From the IMG/VR virus record IMGVR_UViG_3300002460_000007: a DNA stretch of 47,457 bases; one strand, written 5' to 3'. Positions 1 to 47,457 of the stretch are shown one piece after another (the first letter of the stretch is position 1; each line of letters starts with the position of its first letter). The stretch comes from a virus. The position numbers and the translations under genes are program-made. The notes beneath the pieces are model-generated. The model saw nothing but the letters and a program-made list of their open reading frames with translations, was not told where the DNA came from and did no database searches.

Positions 1-43
1 ACAATCGCCACACCAAGAGGCGCTGCTAGTACACTCACCACAA
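1..43. repeat. Terminal identity, left copy: identical to 47415-47457
   Basis: Direct comparison of both ends: acaatcgccacaccaagaggcgctgctagtacactcaccacaa. The identity ends at 43 nt. Confidence 0.9.
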
Positions 44-100
44 CGTCTGCATGAGTGGCAGCAATCAGTACAGGTGCCACAATCGCCACACCAAGAGGCG
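1..100 (-). repeat. 78-bp coding tandem repeat: full unit 1-78 plus a partial diverging unit from 79
   Basis: 1-23 equals 79-101. The unit encodes a 26-aa Cys ladder, CGDCGTCTDCCHSCRRCGECTSSASW, on the minus strand. Confidence 0.85.
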
Positions 101-624
101 CAGCTAGAACAACTCCGAACTCCACAGTCCCCGCAAACCGAAAACCCCCTCACGAACTCATTGCAGTCTGAACACCAATGGTCGCACCCCTCACACTCAC
201 ACTCCGCACAATTTGGACACCTATTAGTATCTTCCTTGCATTCCTCACACTCTAATTGCAGTTTCCACAGGAATCTTTGCACAGCCGATAATAGGTCAAA
301 AGTCTCCCCAGTAGATTGTGCTACCTTTTCGGCAGTTTGGTAATGCTTCGCACACCAATACAAGCCCTCGATACTTCTCGTTCCCTCAAATAGACAGATT
401 ACACAAGACAGAGAATGGGCAGAGACAAGGGCATCATGCATTTGTACCATATACATAAATGGTGCATCCGCATATCCTAATGTTCCTGCTAATCTGATTA
501 TTTCGTTGTAGCAGTCCTTACAGAGATAAACATCCTCCTTGTATTGTTTTATGTTACGCGGTTCTGAAAGAGTCCAAGTAACAACAGCAACACCATGTCC
601 AAAGATGCATTGAGGTGCGTTCAT
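1..624 (-). CDS. N-terminal part (208 codons) of a junction-spanning Cys-ladder protein of about 456 aa; continues at 47414 down to 46668
   Basis: ATG at 624-622 with aggag upstream. I translated all 208 codons on the minus strand with no stop down to base 1 (MNAPQCIFGHGVAVV...CHSCRRCGECTSSASWCGDC). It is absent from the ORF track because it runs off the window. Confidence 0.8.
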   Translation of the reverse strand, partial: MNAPQCIFGHGVAVVTWTLSEPRNIKQYKEDVYLCKDCYNEIIRLAGTLGYADAPFMYMVQMHDALVSAHSLSCVICLFEGTRSIEGLYWCAKHYQTAEKVAQSTGETFDLLSAVQRFLWKLQLECEECKEDTNRCPNCAECECEGCDHWCSDCNEFVRGFSVCGDCGVRSCSSCASWCGDCGTCTDCCHSCRRCGECTSSASWCGDC

Positions 625-2292: not shown

Positions 2293-2502
2293 CTACTTCC
2301 CTTCCTTGTCACCGTAACACGGGCGACATACAAACTGCCCATCATCTGTGAGCACTACATCTCGGACAGACTGCGAACAGTCTGCGCAGTAAATGTCATG
2401 CCCATGCCTCAGCCAATCGCTCAAATAAGAGACTAGATATTCCCGCTCATCTGGCGATAGCTCAGGGTCTGCTGTACCGATGCAATAGCTCGGTACTGTC
2501 AT
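2293..2502 (-). CDS. Zinc-ribbon protein, 69 aa (track ORF trimmed to the ATG with an SD)
   Basis: CADC...CRPC pairs. SD ggaagga before ATG 2502. Confidence 0.5.
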   Translation of the reverse strand: MTVPSYCIGTADPELSPDEREYLVSYLSDWLRHGHDIYCADCSQSVRDVVLTDDGQFVCRPCYGDKEGK

Positions 2503-2538
2503 GGGAGTATCCTTCCCGACAACGCGCAGAAGCATTCT

Positions 2539-3397: not shown

Positions 3398-3616
3398 ATG
3401 AGTAATGTTATGGAGGAGGGAAAGATGCAGTCAATGAGCGGGAGCAATTCGTCCTTTGTCTTGTGTACTTATTGTAATAGGTATCCGTGCTCTTGTTACA
3501 TTAATTATAGACCTTTTGCCTGTGAGCACTGTTACTGCAGTGAATACTCCAATGACCATCTACAGTGTTGTAAGTGTTATACAACTATGCACAAGAAGTT
3601 CGTTGAGAAGATGTAA
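3398..3616 (+). CDS. Small Cys-rich protein; alternative start ATG 3425 after ggaggaggg
   Basis: 12 Cys in the last 63 aa (CTYCNRYPCSCY...CEHCYCSE...CCKCY). It has its own promoter. Confidence 0.6.
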   Translation: MSNVMEEGKMQSMSGSNSSFVLCTYCNRYPCSCYINYRPFACEHCYCSEYSNDHLQCCKCYTTMHKKFVEKM

Positions 3617-32305: not shown

Positions 32306-32695
32306 TTAATAACTAGCGTAGTTACTCCACTTCGTAATATACTCGTTAGGAACTCGTTTCCTCACTCCTGGTCTTTTGCCGTAAGCAGGCTTTTTCCAGT
32401 AGCAGTCCCCGCACACCGACACCCACCTCCACGCTGTCAGATTTTGCTTATCCGCTTCTGCAGAATCGACGGTGATGGCTGCCTGCCACTGCACCATGGG
32501 GCCGACGAACTCCTTGCCGCAGCAATAGCATTGTTCAGGGGGGGTGGTTCGTTGGTGCTTACCTCCACGGTTCATGTCTTTTATCCATTCCTTTTCCTCC
32601 TCTTGGGACATAGTGGGATGAGTATGTAGTTCTTTAGTACATTGTCCACGAGTAAGAGTACACTTTCCAATTACTATTCTATAAAACATTGGCAA
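32306..32695 (-). CDS. Cys-containing hypothetical protein; start uncertain
   Basis: CYCCGKEF...CGDCYW. Confidence 0.5.
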   Translation of the reverse strand: MPMFYRIVIGKCTLTRGQCTKELHTHPTMSQEEEKEWIKDMNRGGKHQRTTPPEQCYCCGKEFVGPMVQWQAAITVDSAEADKQNLTAWRWVSVCGDCYWKKPAYGKRPGVRKRVPNEYITKWSNYASY

Positions 32696-33195
32696 GTAGG
32701 GCAGTGACGAACTTTATTATGAGTTTGTGTTTCCATCGTTGCCCACCTAATGTTACTTGGTTCATAATTACCCTGCCCATCTATGCGGTCTAGTCCTCCA
32801 TCCGCCCAATCTGGTCTCCACCCTACATCAGAAAGGAAATTCGCAAAGCCGTTTTTTCCAAGCCAGCTATCGCAGACTATGATTCCTCGCCCACCATAAT
32901 GATGATAGGCAGGGTCGTTTGTCCTGTAGCATCTCGACCTCATACTTATCCAAGTATGATATTCTGTTGAAGTAGTTAATCCATGTTTGACAGCGAGGTT
33001 AATAGTAGGGTTTCCATGTCTGCGTATTCTCATGTGATGCTTGCTGCAATAACCATCGCAGAACGCTTTCTCTAGACATTTTTCAATCTTGCAAAGAGGG
33101 CGACACTCGCGGGTACAAAATCTTTGATTATGTATATTTGGGGTAAAGTCTATTCCACATGACTCACAGCTTTTATTAGCATATTCTTTCCCCAT
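32674..33195 (-). CDS. Homing-endonuclease-like DNA-binding protein (AP2/HNH-associated type) with N-terminal zinc ribbons
   Basis: YHHYGGRGIIVCDSWL...FANFLSDVGWRP...LDRIDGQGNYEPSNIRWAT is typical of phage proteins annotated as HNH/AP2. Confidence 0.55.
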   Translation of the reverse strand: MGKEYANKSCESCGIDFTPNIHNQRFCTRECRPLCKIEKCLEKAFCDGYCSKHHMRIRRHGNPTINLAVKHGLTTSTEYHTWISMRSRCYRTNDPAYHHYGGRGIIVCDSWLGKNGFANFLSDVGWRPDWADGGLDRIDGQGNYEPSNIRWATMETQTHNKVRHCPTCQCFIE

Positions 33196-33941: not shown

Positions 33942-34527
33942 GCAGTTCCTCCGCGACCTTCAACGCCCGCTCCAAATTAAACACTCGATGTAGACCTGGC
34001 TGCTTAGGGAGATGGACGTTGTATTGGTACGTTGGCATCACAACCTGGATACCGCTGTCCAATAACTCCTGTGCGTACTTCGGGCTGTCATCTATCATCA
34101 CGTTAATCTTCAGCAGCTTGCAGTGTTCGGATTTCTCTTCACCCTTCTTCACCCGTATGATGAAAGCATTGGGCATCCCATAGTTCTCCAACCACTGATG
34201 AGTCTGCTTGGCAGAATTGCCGCCGTCTCTCCTCGTGATGAACACGATAGGGTGCTTGTTGTATATCTCTCGTAGATAATCCATGTTGTACAGGGGCTCA
34301 ACACCTAGCCAAAAATTGCCATTGTCCAGTGTGAGTATGGACTTCCACGTTGCCTCTATTATCCCACTATGTGCGTACCACTCATCCCACTTCCACGATT
34401 CCACATCCATGTAATCGACAATCGGTGCCTCATCGGGGAATAATCTATTTGCGCGGGTGGAGAACGCCTTGACAAAGTTACAAACTACTCCGTCCATGTC
34501 GCAGCCTATGATACTCAAGGCTTCCAC
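33925..34527 (-). CDS. HAD-family 5'(3')-deoxyribonucleotidase
   Basis: Motif I CDMDGVVCNF, plus VFITRR and VMIDDSPKY. Confidence 0.7.
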   Translation of the reverse strand: MEALSIIGCDMDGVVCNFVKAFSTRANRLFPDEAPIVDYMDVESWKWDEWYAHSGIIEATWKSILTLDNGNFWLGVEPLYNMDYLREIYNKHPIVFITRRDGGNSAKQTHQWLENYGMPNAFIIRVKKGEEKSEHCKLLKINVMIDDSPKYAQELLDSGIQVVMPTYQYNVHLPKQPGLHRVFNLERALKVAEELHDLSK

Positions 34528-42987: not shown

Positions 42988-44508
42988 CTACCTCAGTTGG
43001 TCGTGGAACCACTGAGGAAAAGCCTTTTTATTCCGGTCATACAGGTTTGCAAAACTCCCGTCCAAAATGTAGGTTTCGCAGTAATCATCGGCACTTCGCA
43101 TTCCTCTTCCAATAGTTTGACTAGTGTAGGCGGCAGTGGAATTGAAATAAAACTTTTGTCCCATTCCCCCATCGTTTGCACGAAGATTGACGAGTGGGTC
43201 AGCCAAGTCTGGATATCTAATCTTGGCAATAAGTTGGATTCGACATTGCTCGTCGTCGAAGGACTCTCCTTCTCCGATTGATGGGTGTATAATCCATCCT
43301 GCCTTGCTTGCTCGAAACCTGTCAAGAGTCTCAACACGTTTCCCTCCACGACGTAGAAGTACCAGCCTAGACCGGCAGTCCTGACACCGTAAGATTGTCC
43401 TTGCCAGCCTATCCACCTGAGATACAGAGGCGACGTGGATGATTCCTTTATCCCCACTTCTGCTGTGTATGTATTCATGACATGCTAACCCCATCCTTTC
43501 CCAGTCCTTGACGGACGAATCCTTGTTCATCGAAGCCACGGGTCTATAATACACCGGCCAGCGCCATTTGTCAAATGGGGACGGTGCAGATATATACTTG
43601 TAGTCATCCTTGTACCCTAACAATTCTGCAAAAAAGTCTCCTCCCCATAATGTGGCTGACATAACTAATACATGATTGGCAGACTGGAGCAAAGATTCGG
43701 CGCTCTTACGGGGCCAGAGTGGAGTAGCCTCAAACAAGTCATCGGCACGGGTTACTATAAGCCCCGCCGGACTTGTGGCTAGTCCCTGTAGCTGGTACAT
43801 AAGAGATAACCAAGCCTTTGCCCATTTACTGCCAGATAACGTCAGACCGAAGGCACGTTTACGAACCTTGTCTACATTGAGCTTTGCCCAAGTTTGCATA
43901 GGTTCTATCTCGTTGGACGCTGGAACCTTTAGGTTAAGCTTCTCGCACAATCTCCGGTCAACAGTGATTGTCTCTGCTTGAGTGAGGAAATCTAACAGTC
44001 GGTGCCCCTCATCACAGACTAACAGGTGTGGACGGCGCTCATGCCATCGCTTACCCTTCAGTAGCTCAGACATATACAATGCATAGTTTGTTACCACTAC
44101 TGCCGAGCGTCTGTACTCCTCCTCCTGTGCATAAAAGTCAGAGTTACAAGATATAGACGAGTCAGCTACACACGGAGCGTTCGCTGCCGTAGTCTTGTAT
44201 CTCAGGGTGCACTCGAAGTTATCCCTGCCTACCAGTTTGCAGACACGAGGGAAGTCCGCATCGTATTGGTTCTGCAAAGATATGGTGGCCGTATTGATGA
44301 CAGTGAACGGTGAACCTATCAATTCTGCCAATGATATAGCAATTGCAGACTTCCCGATTCCAGTGGGCAGCTCTAGCATAGTAAGCCTGCCTAATTTAGT
44401 TGAAGATATTGTCCCCAATTCACGGGCTATTTTAATTAAGATATTTCTTTGCATCTCTCGTGCCTCAGCGTAGCGTGGCCCTAGTCCGGCGAAAATTTCC
44501 TCTATCAT
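42988..44508 (-). CDS. SF2 helicase, DinG/Rad3(XPD)-like (track ORF trimmed to ATG 44508)
   Basis: Walker A LPTGIGKS, DEGH box LLVCDEGHRL and a C-terminal IGRGMRSADDYC. ATGA coupling with the upstream ORF. Confidence 0.75.
   Translation of the reverse strand: MIEEIFAGLGPRYAEAREMQRNILIKIARELGTISSTKLGRLTMLELPTGIGKSAIAISLAELIGSPFTVINTATISLQNQYDADFPRVCKLVGRDNFECTLRYKTTAANAPCVADSSISCNSDFYAQEEEYRRSAVVVTNYALYMSELLKGKRWHERRPHLLVCDEGHRLLDFLTQAETITVDRRLCEKLNLKVPASNEIEPMQTWAKLNVDKVRKRAFGLTLSGSKWAKAWLSLMYQLQGLATSPAGLIVTRADDLFEATPLWPRKSAESLLQSANHVLVMSATLWGGDFFAELLGYKDDYKYISAPSPFDKWRWPVYYRPVASMNKDSSVKDWERMGLACHEYIHSRSGDKGIIHVASVSQVDRLARTILRCQDCRSRLVLLRRGGKRVETLDRFRASKAGWIIHPSIGEGESFDDEQCRIQLIAKIRYPDLADPLVNLRANDGGMGQKFYFNSTAAYTSQTIGRGMRSADDYCETYILDGSFANLYDRNKKAFPQWFHDQLR
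43546..43574 (-). promoter_or_regulatory. Possible intragenic promoter: TTGACAAAT-...-TATTAT with a 17-nt spacer
   Basis: Perfect -35 and a 5/6 -10. The flanks resemble the 42356-42384 promoter. Confidence 0.4.
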
Positions 44509-44699
44509 GGTAGACCAGACTCCAACGGGAGGAAATCTCGCGGGTCTGGGTTTATTTGTGTACCACACCACGGGCAGTAGCTTATAGGAACCTCAAAATT
44601 GTCGTCACAACCCCAGATAAGGTTATTCCATAGGTGGGGGGTACATCCCTCAGCTTTTCTAAACCTCCACATCTCGTGGCAACACATCTTCTTATTCAC
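44505..44699 (-). CDS. Small zinc-ribbon protein, 64 aa
   Basis: MCCHE...GC...CPWCG. Coupled by ATGA to the helicase. Confidence 0.45.
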   Translation of the reverse strand: MNKKMCCHEMWRFRKAEGCTPHLWNNLIWGCDDNFEVPISYCPWCGTQINPDPRDFLPLESGLP

Positions 44700-44749: not shown

Positions 44750-45106
44750 CTAAGTGGCGTCCTCACCCTTAGCTCCTGTCAAGGTCTCTGCAAACAACTC
44801 CCACGAACTACTATAGAGCGCTATATTACGCACAGTACCATCTACATCAATTACTCTAGTTTGTAGGCTGTGTATTACCTCTTCTAATTTCTTATTTATT
44901 TTCACTATTGCTTTGAGCGATTCCGTACCTCCCCACAATATTAGAGTCTCTTGGGGGTGGGCGCACTGTGCAAATATGTGAAGTAGGAAATTAATAATCT
45001 GTTCCTTACCTACGTTATGCCTTTGAAATTCAGCCAATAGTTTTTTCAGTAGCGCATCACGGTCTGACAAAACCAGTAGAGACGGGCGGCTCTTACGTTC
45101 TTTCAT
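44750..45106 (-). CDS. Hypothetical protein, 118 aa
   Basis: ATGA coupling to the upstream gene. Confidence 0.55.
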   Translation of the reverse strand: MKERKSRPSLLVLSDRDALLKKLLAEFQRHNVGKEQIINFLLHIFAQCAHPQETLILWGGTESLKAIVKINKKLEEVIHSLQTRVIDVDGTVRNIALYSSSWELFAETLTGAKGEDAT

Positions 45107-46659
45107 GCCTTAAACTCCTCCCATAGAATCGCTGGCCGCACATGATGTGTCTTTTCTGTACAGGATGTGCAGTAAATGTCGTCCGTCGTGTCGTTCCTTC
45201 CGTGTGGTCGTTCAATCATAGACTGTAGCATGGTACAACAACTCTTGCACTGCCAGTAGAACCCATTAGTCTCAAAATCTGCAAGCCTAGTGACTCCTCG
45301 ACCCTGTGCCTCCTTCACCTTCTCCCTAAATGCTATTCGTCTTGCCTTACGCTGCTTCTTACCTTCCTTCTTCTCAGCCCGCGTCTTGTATTTCGTGCCT
45401 TGATTCTTATTAGTTGATGCACTAAGACTGACAGGAGCGGGCGGGGTAGGTTCACCAGCAAACCCGTAGATGAACGCTCGTTGTGCGTAGGTTTCGATGG
45501 CTTCTTGACAGTGGTTCTTTCGCACCAGGTTGATAGCATCTAGCGCCGTCATCTCTAACAACTCTACCGCCAACAGTGCCATGAACGTGCCCGTCCTGCC
45601 ATGTCCCCCCATGCACCCAATGTCTACCTTCTTGCCCTCTTTTATTAGCTCTGTCGCAGCCTTGACAATGTGTAGTATGTATGGACTACGCGGTGCGCTC
45701 ATGTCTGTCCAGTCGTAGAACAGGCACGGGAAAGCCACATCTATCTTTACCAATTCTCTTGGGAAGTCCGGCGTCACCGTCAGTTTATGCGACCACGAGA
45801 TAGTAGAGAAGTAGAAGCCATAGTCCGGTCGTATGTCCGTGTCCTTCGCACTATTCTTATCGGAGGATGCAGAGGCATAGACAGTGTATTCTCCTAGTTT
45901 CACAGGGTCACGCCAGTGGTCGCAGTTGTGAAATCCTCCGCCGTACCACTGTGAGTTCTCGTATCTCCCATAATTGTATACGTTGCTCCGGTGGTACGTG
46001 CTTGCCAGACTAGGTGTTACGCCCTGCCCTGTCCCAACCTCAGTGAACGAACCATCAGACATTTTGCGAAATCTATGGAATCGTGTCTGCCCACAAACTA
46101 GGCACTCTAACTTAGGAGATGTATTGTTCGTCGTCCCCATGACCACACGATAGAGAAACTTGTGCTGTTGGTTTGTGCCACATCTGGCACAGAAGATGTA
46201 ATCCTCATCCTCTTCTTCTGTATCAGCGGGGTCGTTCTCATCGGTAGTGTCAGGTATGTTGAGCACGTTCTTCTCCCACCACACAAGGAACTCAAAATTT
46301 ACACCATCTGAATACAGTTTCTCAATGCTAATGTCAGCTACGCTCACGTCCTTGCCGAAAGTGGTCTTACACTTCACACAGATAGCATCGGCGTTGGTTG
46401 CTAGTCCGTCTTCTGATTCTAGTGCGTGGTATTCCACACTTCCACAAGTGAAACAGTATAGATTACCTCCCGCCCATACCTCTTGCTCTATACAAGTGCA
46501 GCACAAATCACACCGGCCACAATCATGACATAGGCACAAGTCACAGACAGGGAATGTGTCACAGTTTGTTTCCTTGCAATAGTAAAGTAGCCCGTCGACT
46601 TTCATCTCTGTCTTACATAGCCTACAGTGTACCGCCTCAGTTGGTTTTGTTATTGTCAT
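45103..46659 (-). CDS. Multi-zinc-ribbon / Cys-ladder protein with a cysteine (CX5R) dual-specificity-phosphatase-like domain
   Basis: P-loop VDIGCMGGHGRTGTF (codons at 45586-45627). Upstream is a general-acid loop FYDWTDMSAP; downstream is AINLVRKNHCQEAIETYAQRAF. N-terminal ladder CDLCLCHDCGRCDLCCTC. Confidence 0.7.
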   Translation of the reverse strand: MTITKPTEAVHCRLCKTEMKVDGLLYYCKETNCDTFPVCDLCLCHDCGRCDLCCTCIEQEVWAGGNLYCFTCGSVEYHALESEDGLATNADAICVKCKTTFGKDVSVADISIEKLYSDGVNFEFLVWWEKNVLNIPDTTDENDPADTEEEDEDYIFCARCGTNQQHKFLYRVVMGTTNNTSPKLECLVCGQTRFHRFRKMSDGSFTEVGTGQGVTPSLASTYHRSNVYNYGRYENSQWYGGGFHNCDHWRDPVKLGEYTVYASASSDKNSAKDTDIRPDYGFYFSTISWSHKLTVTPDFPRELVKIDVAFPCLFYDWTDMSAPRSPYILHIVKAATELIKEGKKVDIGCMGGHGRTGTFMALLAVELLEMTALDAINLVRKNHCQEAIETYAQRAFIYGFAGEPTPPAPVSLSASTNKNQGTKYKTRAEKKEGKKQRKARRIAFREKVKEAQGRGVTRLADFETNGFYWQCKSCCTMLQSMIERPHGRNDTTDDIYCTSCTEKTHHVRPAILWEEFKA

Positions 46660-46667
46660 TCGCTCTC

Positions 46668-47457
46668 CTATCTAAACGTGTGGGAACCAAACTGTTTCCA
46701 CGCATGATAACGCTTAGTGTGTGGTTCTTCTTCCGGCAGATGCTTCTCAACGTACTCTATTCTACCCTCCAAGTTGGCATCGAGTATATCTTTGAGCCCA
46801 TACGTCGTCCACAGTTTGTTGAATATGCAGCCGTTGTTATGCTCCAGTCCGAAAGCGGTATCAACAAATGTGACCACACTAATCTCACCCTCCTCGAACT
46901 GCCTGAGTGTGGCCGCCACTTGTGCCCAAGCATGACCACCTACTGACCTTCCCCACTTGCCTTCTTCTAGAGCGTACTCCGCCTCTCTAAGAATGTCAGT
47001 GCCATACTCATCGCGCAGGGTTTTCCACTCTGCCCACGCCTTGCCTCGATTGATGTTACCATACTTACGATACCTTTTGTGTATTCTAGGCATCAGTCTC
47101 TTAGCCTCACCATCACCAATCGTCTCCGACCCATACCTAATCTCCCCACCAACAGCCATGTCTAGATAAGGAGCAAAGACTTCGGCCAGTTCCTTCGCGT
47201 AGTTCTCAAACTCTTGCTTGTAGCTTGGGTCACGCTCGGCCATAGTTGCTAGAGTATAGAATGTGGCCGCCGCTTGGTGTAGCTTAAACACAATGGGCAA
47301 CCCCCAATCTCCTACAGCCACATCAGATTCGGAATCGTGCCCGCAGTCACATTCACCGCTGCTAGTACACTCACCACAACGTCTGCATGAGTGGCAGCAA
47401 TCAGTACAGGTGCCACAATCGCCACACCAAGAGGCGCTGCTAGTACACTCACCACAA
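46668..47457 (-). CDS. C-terminal part of the junction-spanning Cys-ladder protein (orphan 217-aa domain plus repeat region)
   Basis: The frame is open from 47457 down to the stop at 46668. The track start (GTG 47321) is internal. The frame matches 1-624 after removal of the 43-nt overlap. Confidence 0.75.
   Translation of the reverse strand, partial: CGECTSSASWCGDCGTCTDCCHSCRRCGECTSSGECDCGHDSESDVAVGDWGLPIVFKLHQAAATFYTLATMAERDPSYKQEFENYAKELAEVFAPYLDMAVGGEIRYGSETIGDGEAKRLMPRIHKRYRKYGNINRGKAWAEWKTLRDEYGTDILREAEYALEEGKWGRSVGGHAWAQVAATLRQFEEGEISVVTFVDTAFGLEHNNGCIFNKLWTTYGLKDILDANLEGRIEYVEKHLPEEEPHTKRYHAWKQFGSHTFR
47359..47457 (-). repeat. 78-bp coding tandem repeat, right-end copies
   Basis: 47359-47414 equals unit positions 23-78. 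47415-47457 equals unit positions 1-43. Confidence 0.85.
47415..47457. repeat. Terminal identity, right copy: identical to 1-43
   Basis: Same 43-mer as the window start. It lies inside a coding tandem repeat. Confidence 0.9.

Follow-up and report, generated by a model that had tools for sequence, protein, structure and literature searches.

The viral DNA analysed here, a window of 47,457 nucleotides, encodes a zinc-decorated cysteine phosphatase of 518 residues (Zn-PTP; positions 45103-46659, minus strand), for which sequence profiles and structural models predict a catalytically competent PTP fold. Its gene comes second in a pair of tightly coupled cistrons, and full-length homologs are available (P0001-P0007 and P0013). 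We propose that, in an early phage module for phosphoryl transfer, Zn-PTP serves as the hydrolytic arm, acting with the product of the upstream gene (the partner) and using its zinc modules as tethers; we would put the probability of this reading at roughly 45%. Cysteine-based PTPs of phages have been little studied and none has an established substrate. The partner-PTP(-dikinase) cassette defined here is widespread among phages and uncharacterised, and the zinc-decorated enzyme does not stand alone, as it belongs to a gene pair that is found across very different phages.

The catalytic domain covers residues ~246-402 (45454-45924, minus strand), as delineated by Pfam, a PDB profile search and Foldseek. 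All three PTP motifs that had been quoted in a sequence-only reading of this DNA could be found on the minus strand. These are the general-acid loop FYDWTDMSAP (residues 314-323; 45691-45720), the C-x5-R-T P-loop VDIGCMGGHGRTGT (VDIGC349MGGH353GR355TGT, residues 345-358; 45586-45627), and the helix with the Q-loop AINLVRKNHCQEAIETYAQRAF (residues 375-396, ...HC384QEAIE389TYAQ393; 45472-45537). The catalytic cysteine is C349, as that reading had it. The general acid D319, C349, R355, the P-loop Thr and Q393 are invariant in 24 of 24 diverse family sequences, and in the Q-loop A-I-E389-T-Y-A-Q393 the Glu is nearly invariant in the same set. Unusual features are a conserved His353 at P-loop position X4, with which C384 co-varies, and the presence of Gly348, not His, ahead of the catalytic Cys.

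The proposal of a PTP fold was checked by profile searches and structure prediction, which all agree. The best Pfam match to the core is PF22785 (Tc-R-P; 28.4 bits versus a gathering cut-off of 27), and it covers only residues 318-362. Below their cut-offs, the same region matched PTP-SAK (PF22784, the second-best match; 23.9 versus 27), Y_phosphatase (20.8 versus 20.9) and DSPc (16.2 versus 33.5). When the family profile was compared with PDB sequences, solved PTPs were recovered with E values from 5e-18 to 1e-12 (to 9e-13 for Tk-PTP, SsoPTP, VHZ and 25xa), the top matches being 25xa, Tk-PTP, ShufPTP, SsoPTP and VHZ. The catalytic core was modelled by AF2 with a pLDDT of 80-95, and a Foldseek search with this model gave a probability of 1.00 and TM values of 0.65-0.78 to Tk-PTP, VHZ, ShufPTP, SsoPTP and MKP-4, with the superposition spanning the whole domain of about 150 residues.

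The nearest solved relatives are Tk-PTP (5z59/5z5a), SsoPTP (2i6i), human DUSP23/VHZ (4erc/2img) and ShufPTP (9e9l). With these small archaeal and VHZ-type PTPs the enzyme shares the minimal fold of ~150 residues, the C-x5-R-T P-loop with its GG motif, the xDxxxP general-acid loop and the (I/V)ETxxQ Q-loop; in Tk-PTP and ShufPTP, it is the PDF(T)AP loop with which D319 aligns. It differs from them in having Gly for His ahead of the Cys, an X4 His paired with a helix Cys (both invariant), an N-terminal CxH, an obligate genomic pairing with the partner, and ~360 extra residues that make up the zinc ribbons, the acidic linker and the basic helix. Zn-PTP is related to the VHZ/archaeal small PTPs, yet belongs to a distinct subfamily by its multidomain make-up of 518 residues, G348 and His353. 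Its sequence signature, CxH...D (general acid)...GCxG[GA]HGRTGT...[Y/H]CxxAIE[T/S]xxQ, assigns it to a phage-specific subfamily that we designate PTP2-type. The two best-matching Pfam families, Tc-R-P and PTP-SAK, are DSP-PTPase domains of polymorphic-toxin and 'Swiss army knife' proteins, and the architecture and genomic context of Zn-PTP are unlike those of these proteins.

Zn-PTP as a whole has 29 Cys residues and 12 CxxC motifs; shuffles preserving its composition gave a mean of 1.56 CxxC motifs, and 12 were reached in 0 of 20,000. At least five CxxC...CxxC ribbon pairs had been counted in the sequence-only reading, which proved too many, as only three canonical ribbons are clear and invariant across homologs (all on the minus strand): ribbon 1 (C69/C72...C94/C97; 46369-46455), ribbon 2 (C157/C160...C186/C189; 46093-46191) and ribbon 3 (C471/C474...C497/C500; 45160-45249). 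Strands surround all three putative ribbons in the AF2 model, with confidence only for ribbon 1, which forms a beta-hairpin pair (pLDDT 77-88), and no Pfam zinc-ribbon family was matched. The weak resemblance of ribbon 2 to ribbon 1 (z = 4.1) is suggestive. The N-terminus holds a cluster of 12 Cys (residues 12-56; 46492-46626, minus strand) that occurs in only part of the family, being absent from homologs P0006 and P0007, and that is modelled with low pLDDT; this cluster could provide up to three further putative metal sites. The Cys ladder reported previously, CDLCLCHDCGRCDLCCTC (residues 39-56), lies inside this cluster, and the acidic linker and Lys/Arg-rich segment of the same report could also be located. 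The linker (residues 137-153; 46201-46251, minus strand) is predicted to be disordered. The Lys/Arg-rich segment corresponds to a basic helix beginning KYKTRAEKKEGKKQRKARR... (residues 423-454; 45298-45393, minus strand), in which K, Y, E, K, K and R positions are invariant, in a region with 17 K/R per 60 residues. The arrangement had been described as unfamiliar, and the zinc-ribbon version is indeed unusual: it is restricted to a small uncultured clade, the only one in which the partner and the PTP are decorated together, while elsewhere the decoration is sporadic.

Zn-PTP is translationally coupled to the partner gene, as its Shine-Dalgarno sequence AGGAG overlaps the stop codon of that gene (46668-46670), 8 nt away from the Zn-PTP start. 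Its own stop codon overlaps the ATG of the next ORF (ATGA), which is thereby translationally coupled to it and encodes 118 residues (44750-45106, minus strand); this ORF is without family match, and its sequence is not kept in relatives. The next conserved gene of the operon encodes a DinG/XPD-like helicase (Helicase_C_2; 42988-44571, minus strand). The location between small early genes and the helicase had thus been placed correctly, and it is syntenic in distant relatives, in which the order of helicase, UDG-PolA and protease genes is kept at 30-40% protein identity. No promoter or terminator signals above chance were detected around the gene pair. The replication arm of the window also contains a PNK-like gene. 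A search of cultured phages for near-identical DNA found none, and no host was assigned, since the terminase and PolA are at most 30% identical to those of cultured phages.

Window positions 1-43 are a duplicate of 47415-47457, and the partner gene runs across this circular junction. Its 3' part (46668-47457, minus strand) encodes a conserved all-alpha C-terminal domain (phrog_20946 family) and some of the Cys-rich region; the 5' part (44-624, minus strand), with an ATG at 624 after AGGAG, is Cys-rich and contains a 26-aa tandem repeat. The C-terminal domain was modelled with confidence (pLDDT 86, pTM 0.86), and the partner had no match in Pfam, PDB sequences or PDB folds; a BFVD fold search returned only unnamed viral proteins, four of them at TM about 0.7. 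The partner family is large (2,571 cluster representatives at E <= 1e-3), so that the partner stands for a protein family with thousands of members and, judging from the model, a new fold. Its invariant residues are E60, R62, H/Y63, R92, W96, W99, W132, D154, H161, N162 and K169. The predicted structure points to a new all-alpha fold with an invariant polar residue set that is enzyme-like. A Pfam search with ten long family members gave only weak, sub-threshold N-terminal matches to HTH/wHTH and zinc-ribbon domains. That the Cys-rich half of the PTP is homologous to that of the partner was considered and rejected, as their similarity is not significant beyond composition (z = 1.4-2.6). Fusions of the partner with a PTP, swivel or ATP-grasp domain were absent among 153 partner-family proteins; physical coupling of the partner and the PTP is inferred from gene order only.

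In all 27 loci with enough flanking sequence, the partner and PTP genes lie side by side and point the same way; these loci come from very divergent phages, among them cultured Rhodobacter, Stenotrophomonas and Vibrio phages. In the latter, the pair adjoins a truncated "PPDK", consisting of an ATP-grasp domain and a phospho-His swivel without the TIM barrel. Swivel-His genes accompany the pair in 21 of the 28 fetched loci; an ATP-grasp sequence is detectable in 12 of these 21, and a full truncated PPDK-like dikinase in four. The phage 'PPDK' proteins contain PPDK_N and PEP-utilizers domains only, and their match to the PPDK model spans positions 12-523 of its 865. The window itself lacks both swivel-His and ATP-grasp genes, as judged by searches of ORFs of at least 45 aa with custom HMMs (E <= 1e-4), tblastn and Pfam. 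This implies that a complete phage-encoded phosphotransfer chain cannot operate there, and that the pair must act alone or draw on a host phosphoryl donor. In 185k species genomes there were just two distant stand-alone PTP matches, in MAGs, both without the partner.

Among cultured phages, annotated PTPs of this type (PHROG 17568) are found in RcZahn (gp11), in the Stenotrophomonas phages Summit (gp146) and DLP5/DLP3 (gp141), and in Vibrio phage KarBoss. They share with Zn-PTP the PTP2-type signature, the position directly downstream of the partner gene and the proximity to a DNA polymerase gene, and differ from it in being much shorter (214-260 aa) and devoid of CxxC motifs. The cultured phages add a second, PTP1-type paralog and the full ATP-grasp/swivel 'PPDK', neither of which is encoded in the window. 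Culturable phages with the gene pair infect Rhodobacter, Stenotrophomonas, Rhizobium and Vibrio, and the module is amenable to direct testing in existing phage-host pairs.

In the proposed module, which would be expressed early, the phosphatase would perform the hydrolytic step. C349 would attack a phosphomonoester formed on the partner or presented by it; D319 would protonate the leaving group, and Q393 and E389 would place the water that releases the phosphate. In this clade the enzyme may have accreted its three zinc ribbons, its basic helix and the Cys cluster at the N-terminus as modules. They are matched by the Cys-rich half of the partner and probably serve to tether the enzyme to the partner and/or to nucleic acid close to the machinery of replication. 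A kinase and a phosphatase acting on one site would constitute a futile cycle, and hence the logic of the pathway is as yet incomplete. In a broader form, which we put forward tentatively, Zn-PTP and the partner would be the conserved core of an unrecognised, widespread phage phosphoryl-transfer system, in the order truncated PPDK-like dikinase or stand-alone swivel, partner, PTP, which writes and erases phosphate on a target early in infection. Candidate targets would be H/Y63 of the partner, a replication protein, a nucleotide or DNA. Under this same doubtful reading, paired zinc-ribbon arrays would in this clade replace the dikinase as coupling device, and His353 and Cys384 would, together with the N-terminal CxH, make up a metal or redox switch for which other PTPs have no described counterpart. 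If the module phosphorylates and dephosphorylates a host or replication target, it would represent a new layer of phage-host control.

Alternatively, Zn-PTP could be a host-takeover or anti-defence protein phosphatase acting on host phosphoproteins, such as BY-kinase or Ser/Thr/Tyr kinase substrates, abortive-infection sensors based on kinases, or PTS carriers bearing phospho-His or phospho-Cys, with the partner as its targeting or regulatory subunit. In its favour, the general-acid loop and the IETxxQ Q-loop are shared with the nearest solved structures, which are protein-tyrosine phosphatases; the gene occupies the early end of the replication operon, and Tc-R-P stems from polymorphic toxin systems in which PTP domains are effectors. 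We nevertheless consider this explanation unlikely, since the invariant polar residues of the partner resemble an active site and not an adaptor surface, and since it leaves the recurrent link to swivel-His and dikinase genes unexplained. Moreover, PADLOC and NCBIfam gave nothing for either the PTP or the partner, and the absence of PADLOC matches speaks against this explanation. The invariant X4 His, which takes the place of a hydrophobic residue in Tk-PTP and SsoPTP, may hint at a polar and not an aryl leaving group. Even if Zn-PTP were simply a host-protein phosphatase, it would still offer a clean case of a minimal PTP to which zinc ribbons and a basic helix were added by domain accretion. 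Another alternative is a phosphate cycle on a glycan or other polymer, in which the dikinase would phosphorylate the polymer and the PTP would remove the phosphate. Apart from plant glucan-water dikinase with SEX4/laforin, no characterised pathway is known to combine a dikinase of the PPDK family with a phosphatase of the DSP fold. The wider phage cassette resembles the glucan-water dikinase and SEX4/LSF2/laforin systems in this pairing, and its dikinases likewise lack the pyruvate/PEP barrel. The window, in contrast, has no dikinase, its PTP is of another subfamily, and a carbohydrate-binding module was looked for in vain; none of laforin, SEX4 and LSF2 ranks among the top PDB profile matches, and the module adjoins replication genes, not lysis or tail genes. 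A polymer cycle is therefore highly improbable.

The zinc ribbons and basic helix could also bind RNA or DNA, with the PTP removing a terminal phosphate in 3'- or 5'-phosphate end healing, in removal of RNA 5'-tri- or diphosphates, or from a DNA-modification intermediate. This would fit the three ribbons and the 17 K/R in 60 residues, the position of the gene next to those for the helicase and PolA in a replication arm that also holds a PNK-like gene, the weak N-terminal HTH/wHTH matches of some partner-family members, an RNA-ligase-like gene near locus L005, and the naming of PTP-SAK after RNA-end-processing 'Swiss army knife' proteins. RNA 5'-triphosphatases (baculovirus BVP, metazoan capping enzyme/Mce1, PIR1/DUSP11) and poxvirus VH1 are likewise virus-encoded or nucleic-acid-directed CX5R enzymes. 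PTP-fold RNA triphosphatases are not known to carry the general-acid Asp and have a P-loop of the HCTHGxNRT type. Zn-PTP, by contrast, has an invariant general-acid Asp, a Q-loop and the P-loop GCMGGHGRT, and no RNA triphosphatase, PIR1/DUSP11 or BVP is found among its best 60 PDB profile matches. Hence, of the range of CX5R phosphatases allowed by the sequence-only reading, the fold itself is upheld and the RNA 5'-triphosphatase option is disfavoured. Most members of the PTP2-type subfamily, including all those of cultured phages, are without ribbons, so that nucleic-acid tethering cannot be the ancestral determinant. The window also lacks a ligase, a hydroxymethylase or any other DNA-modification gene, and overall a nucleic-acid or nucleotide phosphatase seems quite improbable. 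A DNA-hypermodification pathway was rejected on the ground that the replication arm has no hydroxymethylase or other modification enzyme.

The phage literature labels the dikinase as an auxiliary metabolic PPDK and hardly mentions the PTPs. A literature search for a characterised phage PTP/dikinase module yielded genome-description papers only, and comparative papers on jumbo phages and polyvalent proteins do not mention such a module. The phage "pyruvate phosphate dikinase", which lacks the pyruvate/PEP domain, appears to be part of a PTP module and not of auxiliary metabolism. Similarly, the label 'thymidylate synthase' carried by PHROG 17568 was rejected as an inherited misannotation, as the CD-search reported in the DLP3 paper itself identifies gp141 as a PTP.

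A single minus-strand ORF fills positions 45103-46659 and encodes the 518-residue protein Zn-PTP, which combines a PTP catalytic domain (residues ~246-402) with predicted zinc ribbons. The motifs quoted in the sequence-only reading were each found where it had placed them, i.e. the general-acid loop FYDWTDMSAP (residues 314-323), the P-loop VDIGCMGGHGRTGT (residues 345-358, with C349 as catalytic cysteine), the helix following it, AINLVRKNHCQEAIETYAQRAF (residues 375-396), a Cys ladder (residues 39-56), an acidic linker (residues 137-153) and a Lys/Arg-rich stretch (residues 423-454). The Pfam family Tc-R-P (PF22785) matches Zn-PTP with 28.4 bits (cut-off 27), and PTP-SAK, Y_phosphatase and DSPc match the same region below their cut-offs. 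A PDB search with the single sequence retrieved ShufPTP, Tk-PTP, RPTP-epsilon, DUSP23/VHZ and SsoPTP (E-values of about 1e-5 to 1e-3), in which the general acid aligns with D319 and the IETxxQ motif with that of Zn-PTP. With a family profile built from 24 diverse members, the best PDB matches were 25xa (5e-18), Tk-PTP (2e-17), SsoPTP (2e-16) and VHZ (9e-13), followed by classical PTPs, KAP, VSP, CDC14 and PTPMT1. RNA triphosphatases, glucan phosphatases and Siw14-type enzymes are all missing from the best 60 matches. The AF2 model, for which 18 sequences were used as input, is poor overall (pLDDT 61) with a good core (80-95 at residues 310-400), and Foldseek matched it to Tk-PTP, VHZ, ShufPTP, MKP-4 and SsoPTP with probability 1.00 and TM-scores of 0.65-0.78 over the whole target of about 150 residues. 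D319, C349, G351, G354, R355, T356, G357 and Q393 are invariant in 24 of 24 sequences. HMM searches and structure prediction thus both support the PTP fold that had been claimed. The catalytic domain belongs to the PTP superfamily, all testable defining features being present, and is closest to the VHZ/archaeal group, from which it nevertheless stands apart. Its catalytic apparatus is complete, and we have very little doubt that Zn-PTP is an active PTP-fold phosphatase.

The partner-linked subfamily of these enzymes (PTP2-type) can be distinguished from the second paralog of cultured phages (PTP1-type) by an invariant His at P-loop position X4 (H353; window 45601-45603) and an invariant Cys five residues ahead of the Q-loop Glu (C384; 45508-45510). 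These two residues co-vary perfectly, both being present in 21/21 PTP2-type and 0/3 PTP1-type sequences. Further common features of the PTP2-type are a Gly preceding the catalytic Cys and, in most sequences, an N-terminal CxH (C246 and H248; 45922-45924 and 45916-45918). In PTP1B the X4 residue, Ile219, lines the substrate pocket, and Arg257, the equivalent of C384, packs beneath the P-loop. The H353/C384 pair, together with the CxH, may form a metal or redox site beside the active site; alternatively, the pair could select for a polar leaving group.

Zn-PTP contains 29 Cys and 12 CxxC motifs, a number reached in none of 20,000 composition-preserving shuffles (mean 1.56). The structural genes of the window phage are almost without Cys and contain no CxxC, and zinc-finger decoration seems to be typical of its early and replication genes. 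In an alignment of eight full-length or nearly full-length homologs (29-98% identity), three CxxC...CxxC pairs are invariant: C69/72 with C94/97, C157/160 with C186/189, and C471/474 with C497/500. At least five ribbons had been proposed initially; the presence of multiple ribbons holds, but the number is better given as three invariant pairs plus one N-terminal cluster of 12 Cys, because two homologs lack this cluster. The full architecture is rare, being found in about nine protein clusters and two IMG/VR contigs, and no full-length Zn-PTP occurs in 185,579 species genomes.

The two ends of the window share an exact overlap of 43 nt (1-43 = 47415-47457); it is therefore a complete genome of 47,414 bp, either assembled as a circle or terminally redundant, in which the genes at both ends are contiguous. 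The gene upstream of Zn-PTP (the partner; 46668..47457 + 44..624, minus strand), first called as 46668-47321, spans this junction, starts with an ATG at position 624 after AGGAG, and encodes 456 residues. Its Cys-rich N-terminal half contains a 26-residue tandem repeat, and its C-terminal ~215 residues form a conserved domain (phrog_20946). The repeat corresponds to a 78-nt in-frame tandem repeat (unit ASWCGDCGTCTDCCHSCRRCGECTSS, two copies; 1-120 and 47336-47457, minus strand) that falls precisely on the assembly junction; whether there are 1 or 2 copies is set by the joining of the ends. The Shine-Dalgarno sequence of Zn-PTP overlaps the stop codon of the partner, and its own stop codon overlaps the start of the next ORF (ATGA); no promoter or terminator signal above shuffled expectation was found in the partner-to-helicase stretch. 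By this arrangement, Zn-PTP is translationally coupled to its conserved partner.

By tblastn, the partner domain adjoins a PTP in the divergent metagenomic relatives L001, L004 and L005, and it adjoins an annotated PTP in the cultured phages RcZahn (gp10/gp11), Summit (gp145/gp146), DLP_3 and KarBoss; in RHph_Y1_11 the distance is about 1 kb. Custom HMMs applied to 28 loci and the window found both genes adjacent and co-directional in all 27 loci with enough flank, the one other locus stopping 30 nt past the partner. The early or replication-arm position of the Zn-PTP gene is also conserved. It is highly probable that Zn-PTP works jointly with the partner. The partner domain is modelled confidently as all-alpha (pLDDT 86, pTM 0.86), with no match to a fold in the PDB (top probability 0.11), only four matches in BFVD, all unnamed viral proteins, and none in Pfam, NCBIfam, PADLOC or PDB sequences. 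The family is nevertheless represented by 2,571 cluster representatives in an exhaustive profile search (E <= 1e-3). Among 186 aligned members Y52, G58, G59, E60, R62, H/Y63 (138 His, 40 Tyr), R92, W96, W99, G128, G129, W132, D154, H161, N162 and K169 are essentially invariant, which suggests an active site or anion-binding pocket rather than a passive scaffold.

CxxC motifs of the PTP number 8-10 on the N-terminal side and 2 on the C-terminal side in the window, L001/L010 and L004, where the partner has 5-9. The homologous protein P0008 (L005) shows independent decoration, as does the partner of L006, and few or no CxxC occur in the remaining PTPs and partners, among them all those from cultured phages; at least four in the N-terminal extension occur in 21 of 153 partner-family proteins. 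Zinc decoration, as predicted from these motifs, is specific to the window clade and common to PTP and partner, and homology between their Cys-rich halves is not demonstrable beyond composition.

The gene order in cultured phages is 'pyruvate phosphate dikinase' (PPDK), PTP1, partner, PTP2, a few genes, and DNA polymerase. In the phage-genome literature 'PPDK' is treated as an auxiliary metabolic gene, and the PTPs get only passing mention. The 'PPDK' proteins (L007 2188-4392, RcZahn gp6; L008 1139-3076, Summit gp140; L009 1522-3675; L005 2539-4083) consist only of PPDK_N (ATP-grasp) and a mobile phospho-His domain (swivel), and RcZahn gp6 covers positions 12-523 of the 865-position PPDK model with a score far under the cut-off. 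They therefore lack the pyruvate/PEP barrel; since no such TIM barrel was detected in these four proteins, annotation as true PPDK is doubtful, and they are probably dikinases of unspecified acceptor. Of the 28 loci, 21 have a swivel-His gene, located either upstream of the partner or between it and the PTP: four (L005, L007-L009) encode a full ATP-grasp and swivel protein, eight more have separate ATP-grasp fragments, and in nine (L001-L004, L010, L011, L016, L017, L025) the swivel is the only detectable part. It was not detected in the window, L006, L023 (truncated), L024 or L026-L028. Stand-alone swivel (PEP-utilizers) genes of 68-108 residues with intact catalytic His adjoin the partner-PTP pair in L001 (7798-8124), L004 (2225-2431) and many IMG/VR loci (L012-L022, L025).

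We tentatively propose, with a probability of roughly 45%, that Zn-PTP is a phosphatase acting within a phosphoryl-transfer module of partner and dikinase. C349 would react with a phosphomonoester to give a phospho-cysteine intermediate, with D319 as general acid and with Q393 and E389 placing the hydrolytic water. The substrate might be made on, or presented by, the partner, and in most lineages the His-swivel dikinase would be the phosphate source. Through the ribbons and basic helix, Zn-PTP could be anchored to the partner, which is equally decorated, to nucleic acid, or to both. The main weakness of this proposal is the absence of a phosphoryl-donor gene from the window genome.

That Zn-PTP would instead dephosphorylate host proteins, the partner serving as its adaptor, we consider unlikely. 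Still less probable is a nucleic-acid or nucleotide phosphatase; the catalytic domain does not fit the RNA-triphosphatase branch. A polymer phosphate cycle, comparable to glucan-water dikinase and SEX4, would be very improbable.

Plain versions of the gene in cultured phages are already labelled 'tyrosine phosphatase' or mislabelled 'thymidylate synthase', so the kind of enzyme is known, and a phage PTP alone would not surprise a specialist. The latter label, given to gp141 of Stenotrophomonas phages DLP5/DLP3 and to PHROG 17568, is a propagated misannotation of PTP-fold proteins. New are the multi-ribbon architecture, the recognition of an apparently obligate partner with a predicted novel fold, and the reinterpretation of phage 'PPDK' as belonging to the partner-PTP module. 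Zn-PTP is embedded in a widespread, uncharacterised module of conserved partner, PTP and dikinase.

The window genome (50% GC) has no close cultured relative, as megablast gave no match and terminase and PolA identities are at most 30%. On its plus-strand arm lie both terminase genes (small and large), that of a probable portal and the other large ORFs, which are unannotated. The minus-strand arm encodes ribonucleotide reductase, HNH and LAGLIDADG-like endonucleases, an exonuclease subunit, PNK-like, Erf-like and Cas4-like proteins, a DinG/XPD-like helicase, a polymerase and a protease. Four LAGLIDADG/HNH homing-endonuclease-like ORFs (38927-39349, 34515-34949 and 32674-33195, all minus; 1551-1898, plus) are scattered over the replication and early regions, one directly downstream of the PolA gene. 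Small Cys-rich ORFs are found at 3398-3616 (plus; 13.9% Cys), 44505-44699 (minus; 9.4%) and 2293-2535 (minus; 6.2%), the last with a weak LIM-like match. The DNA polymerase (39340-41460, minus) is a fusion of a UDG domain, 3'-5' exonuclease and PolA, and the trypsin-like protease (37048-37941, minus) lies inside the replication module; the synteny of both extends to L001 and L004, at only 30-40% identity.
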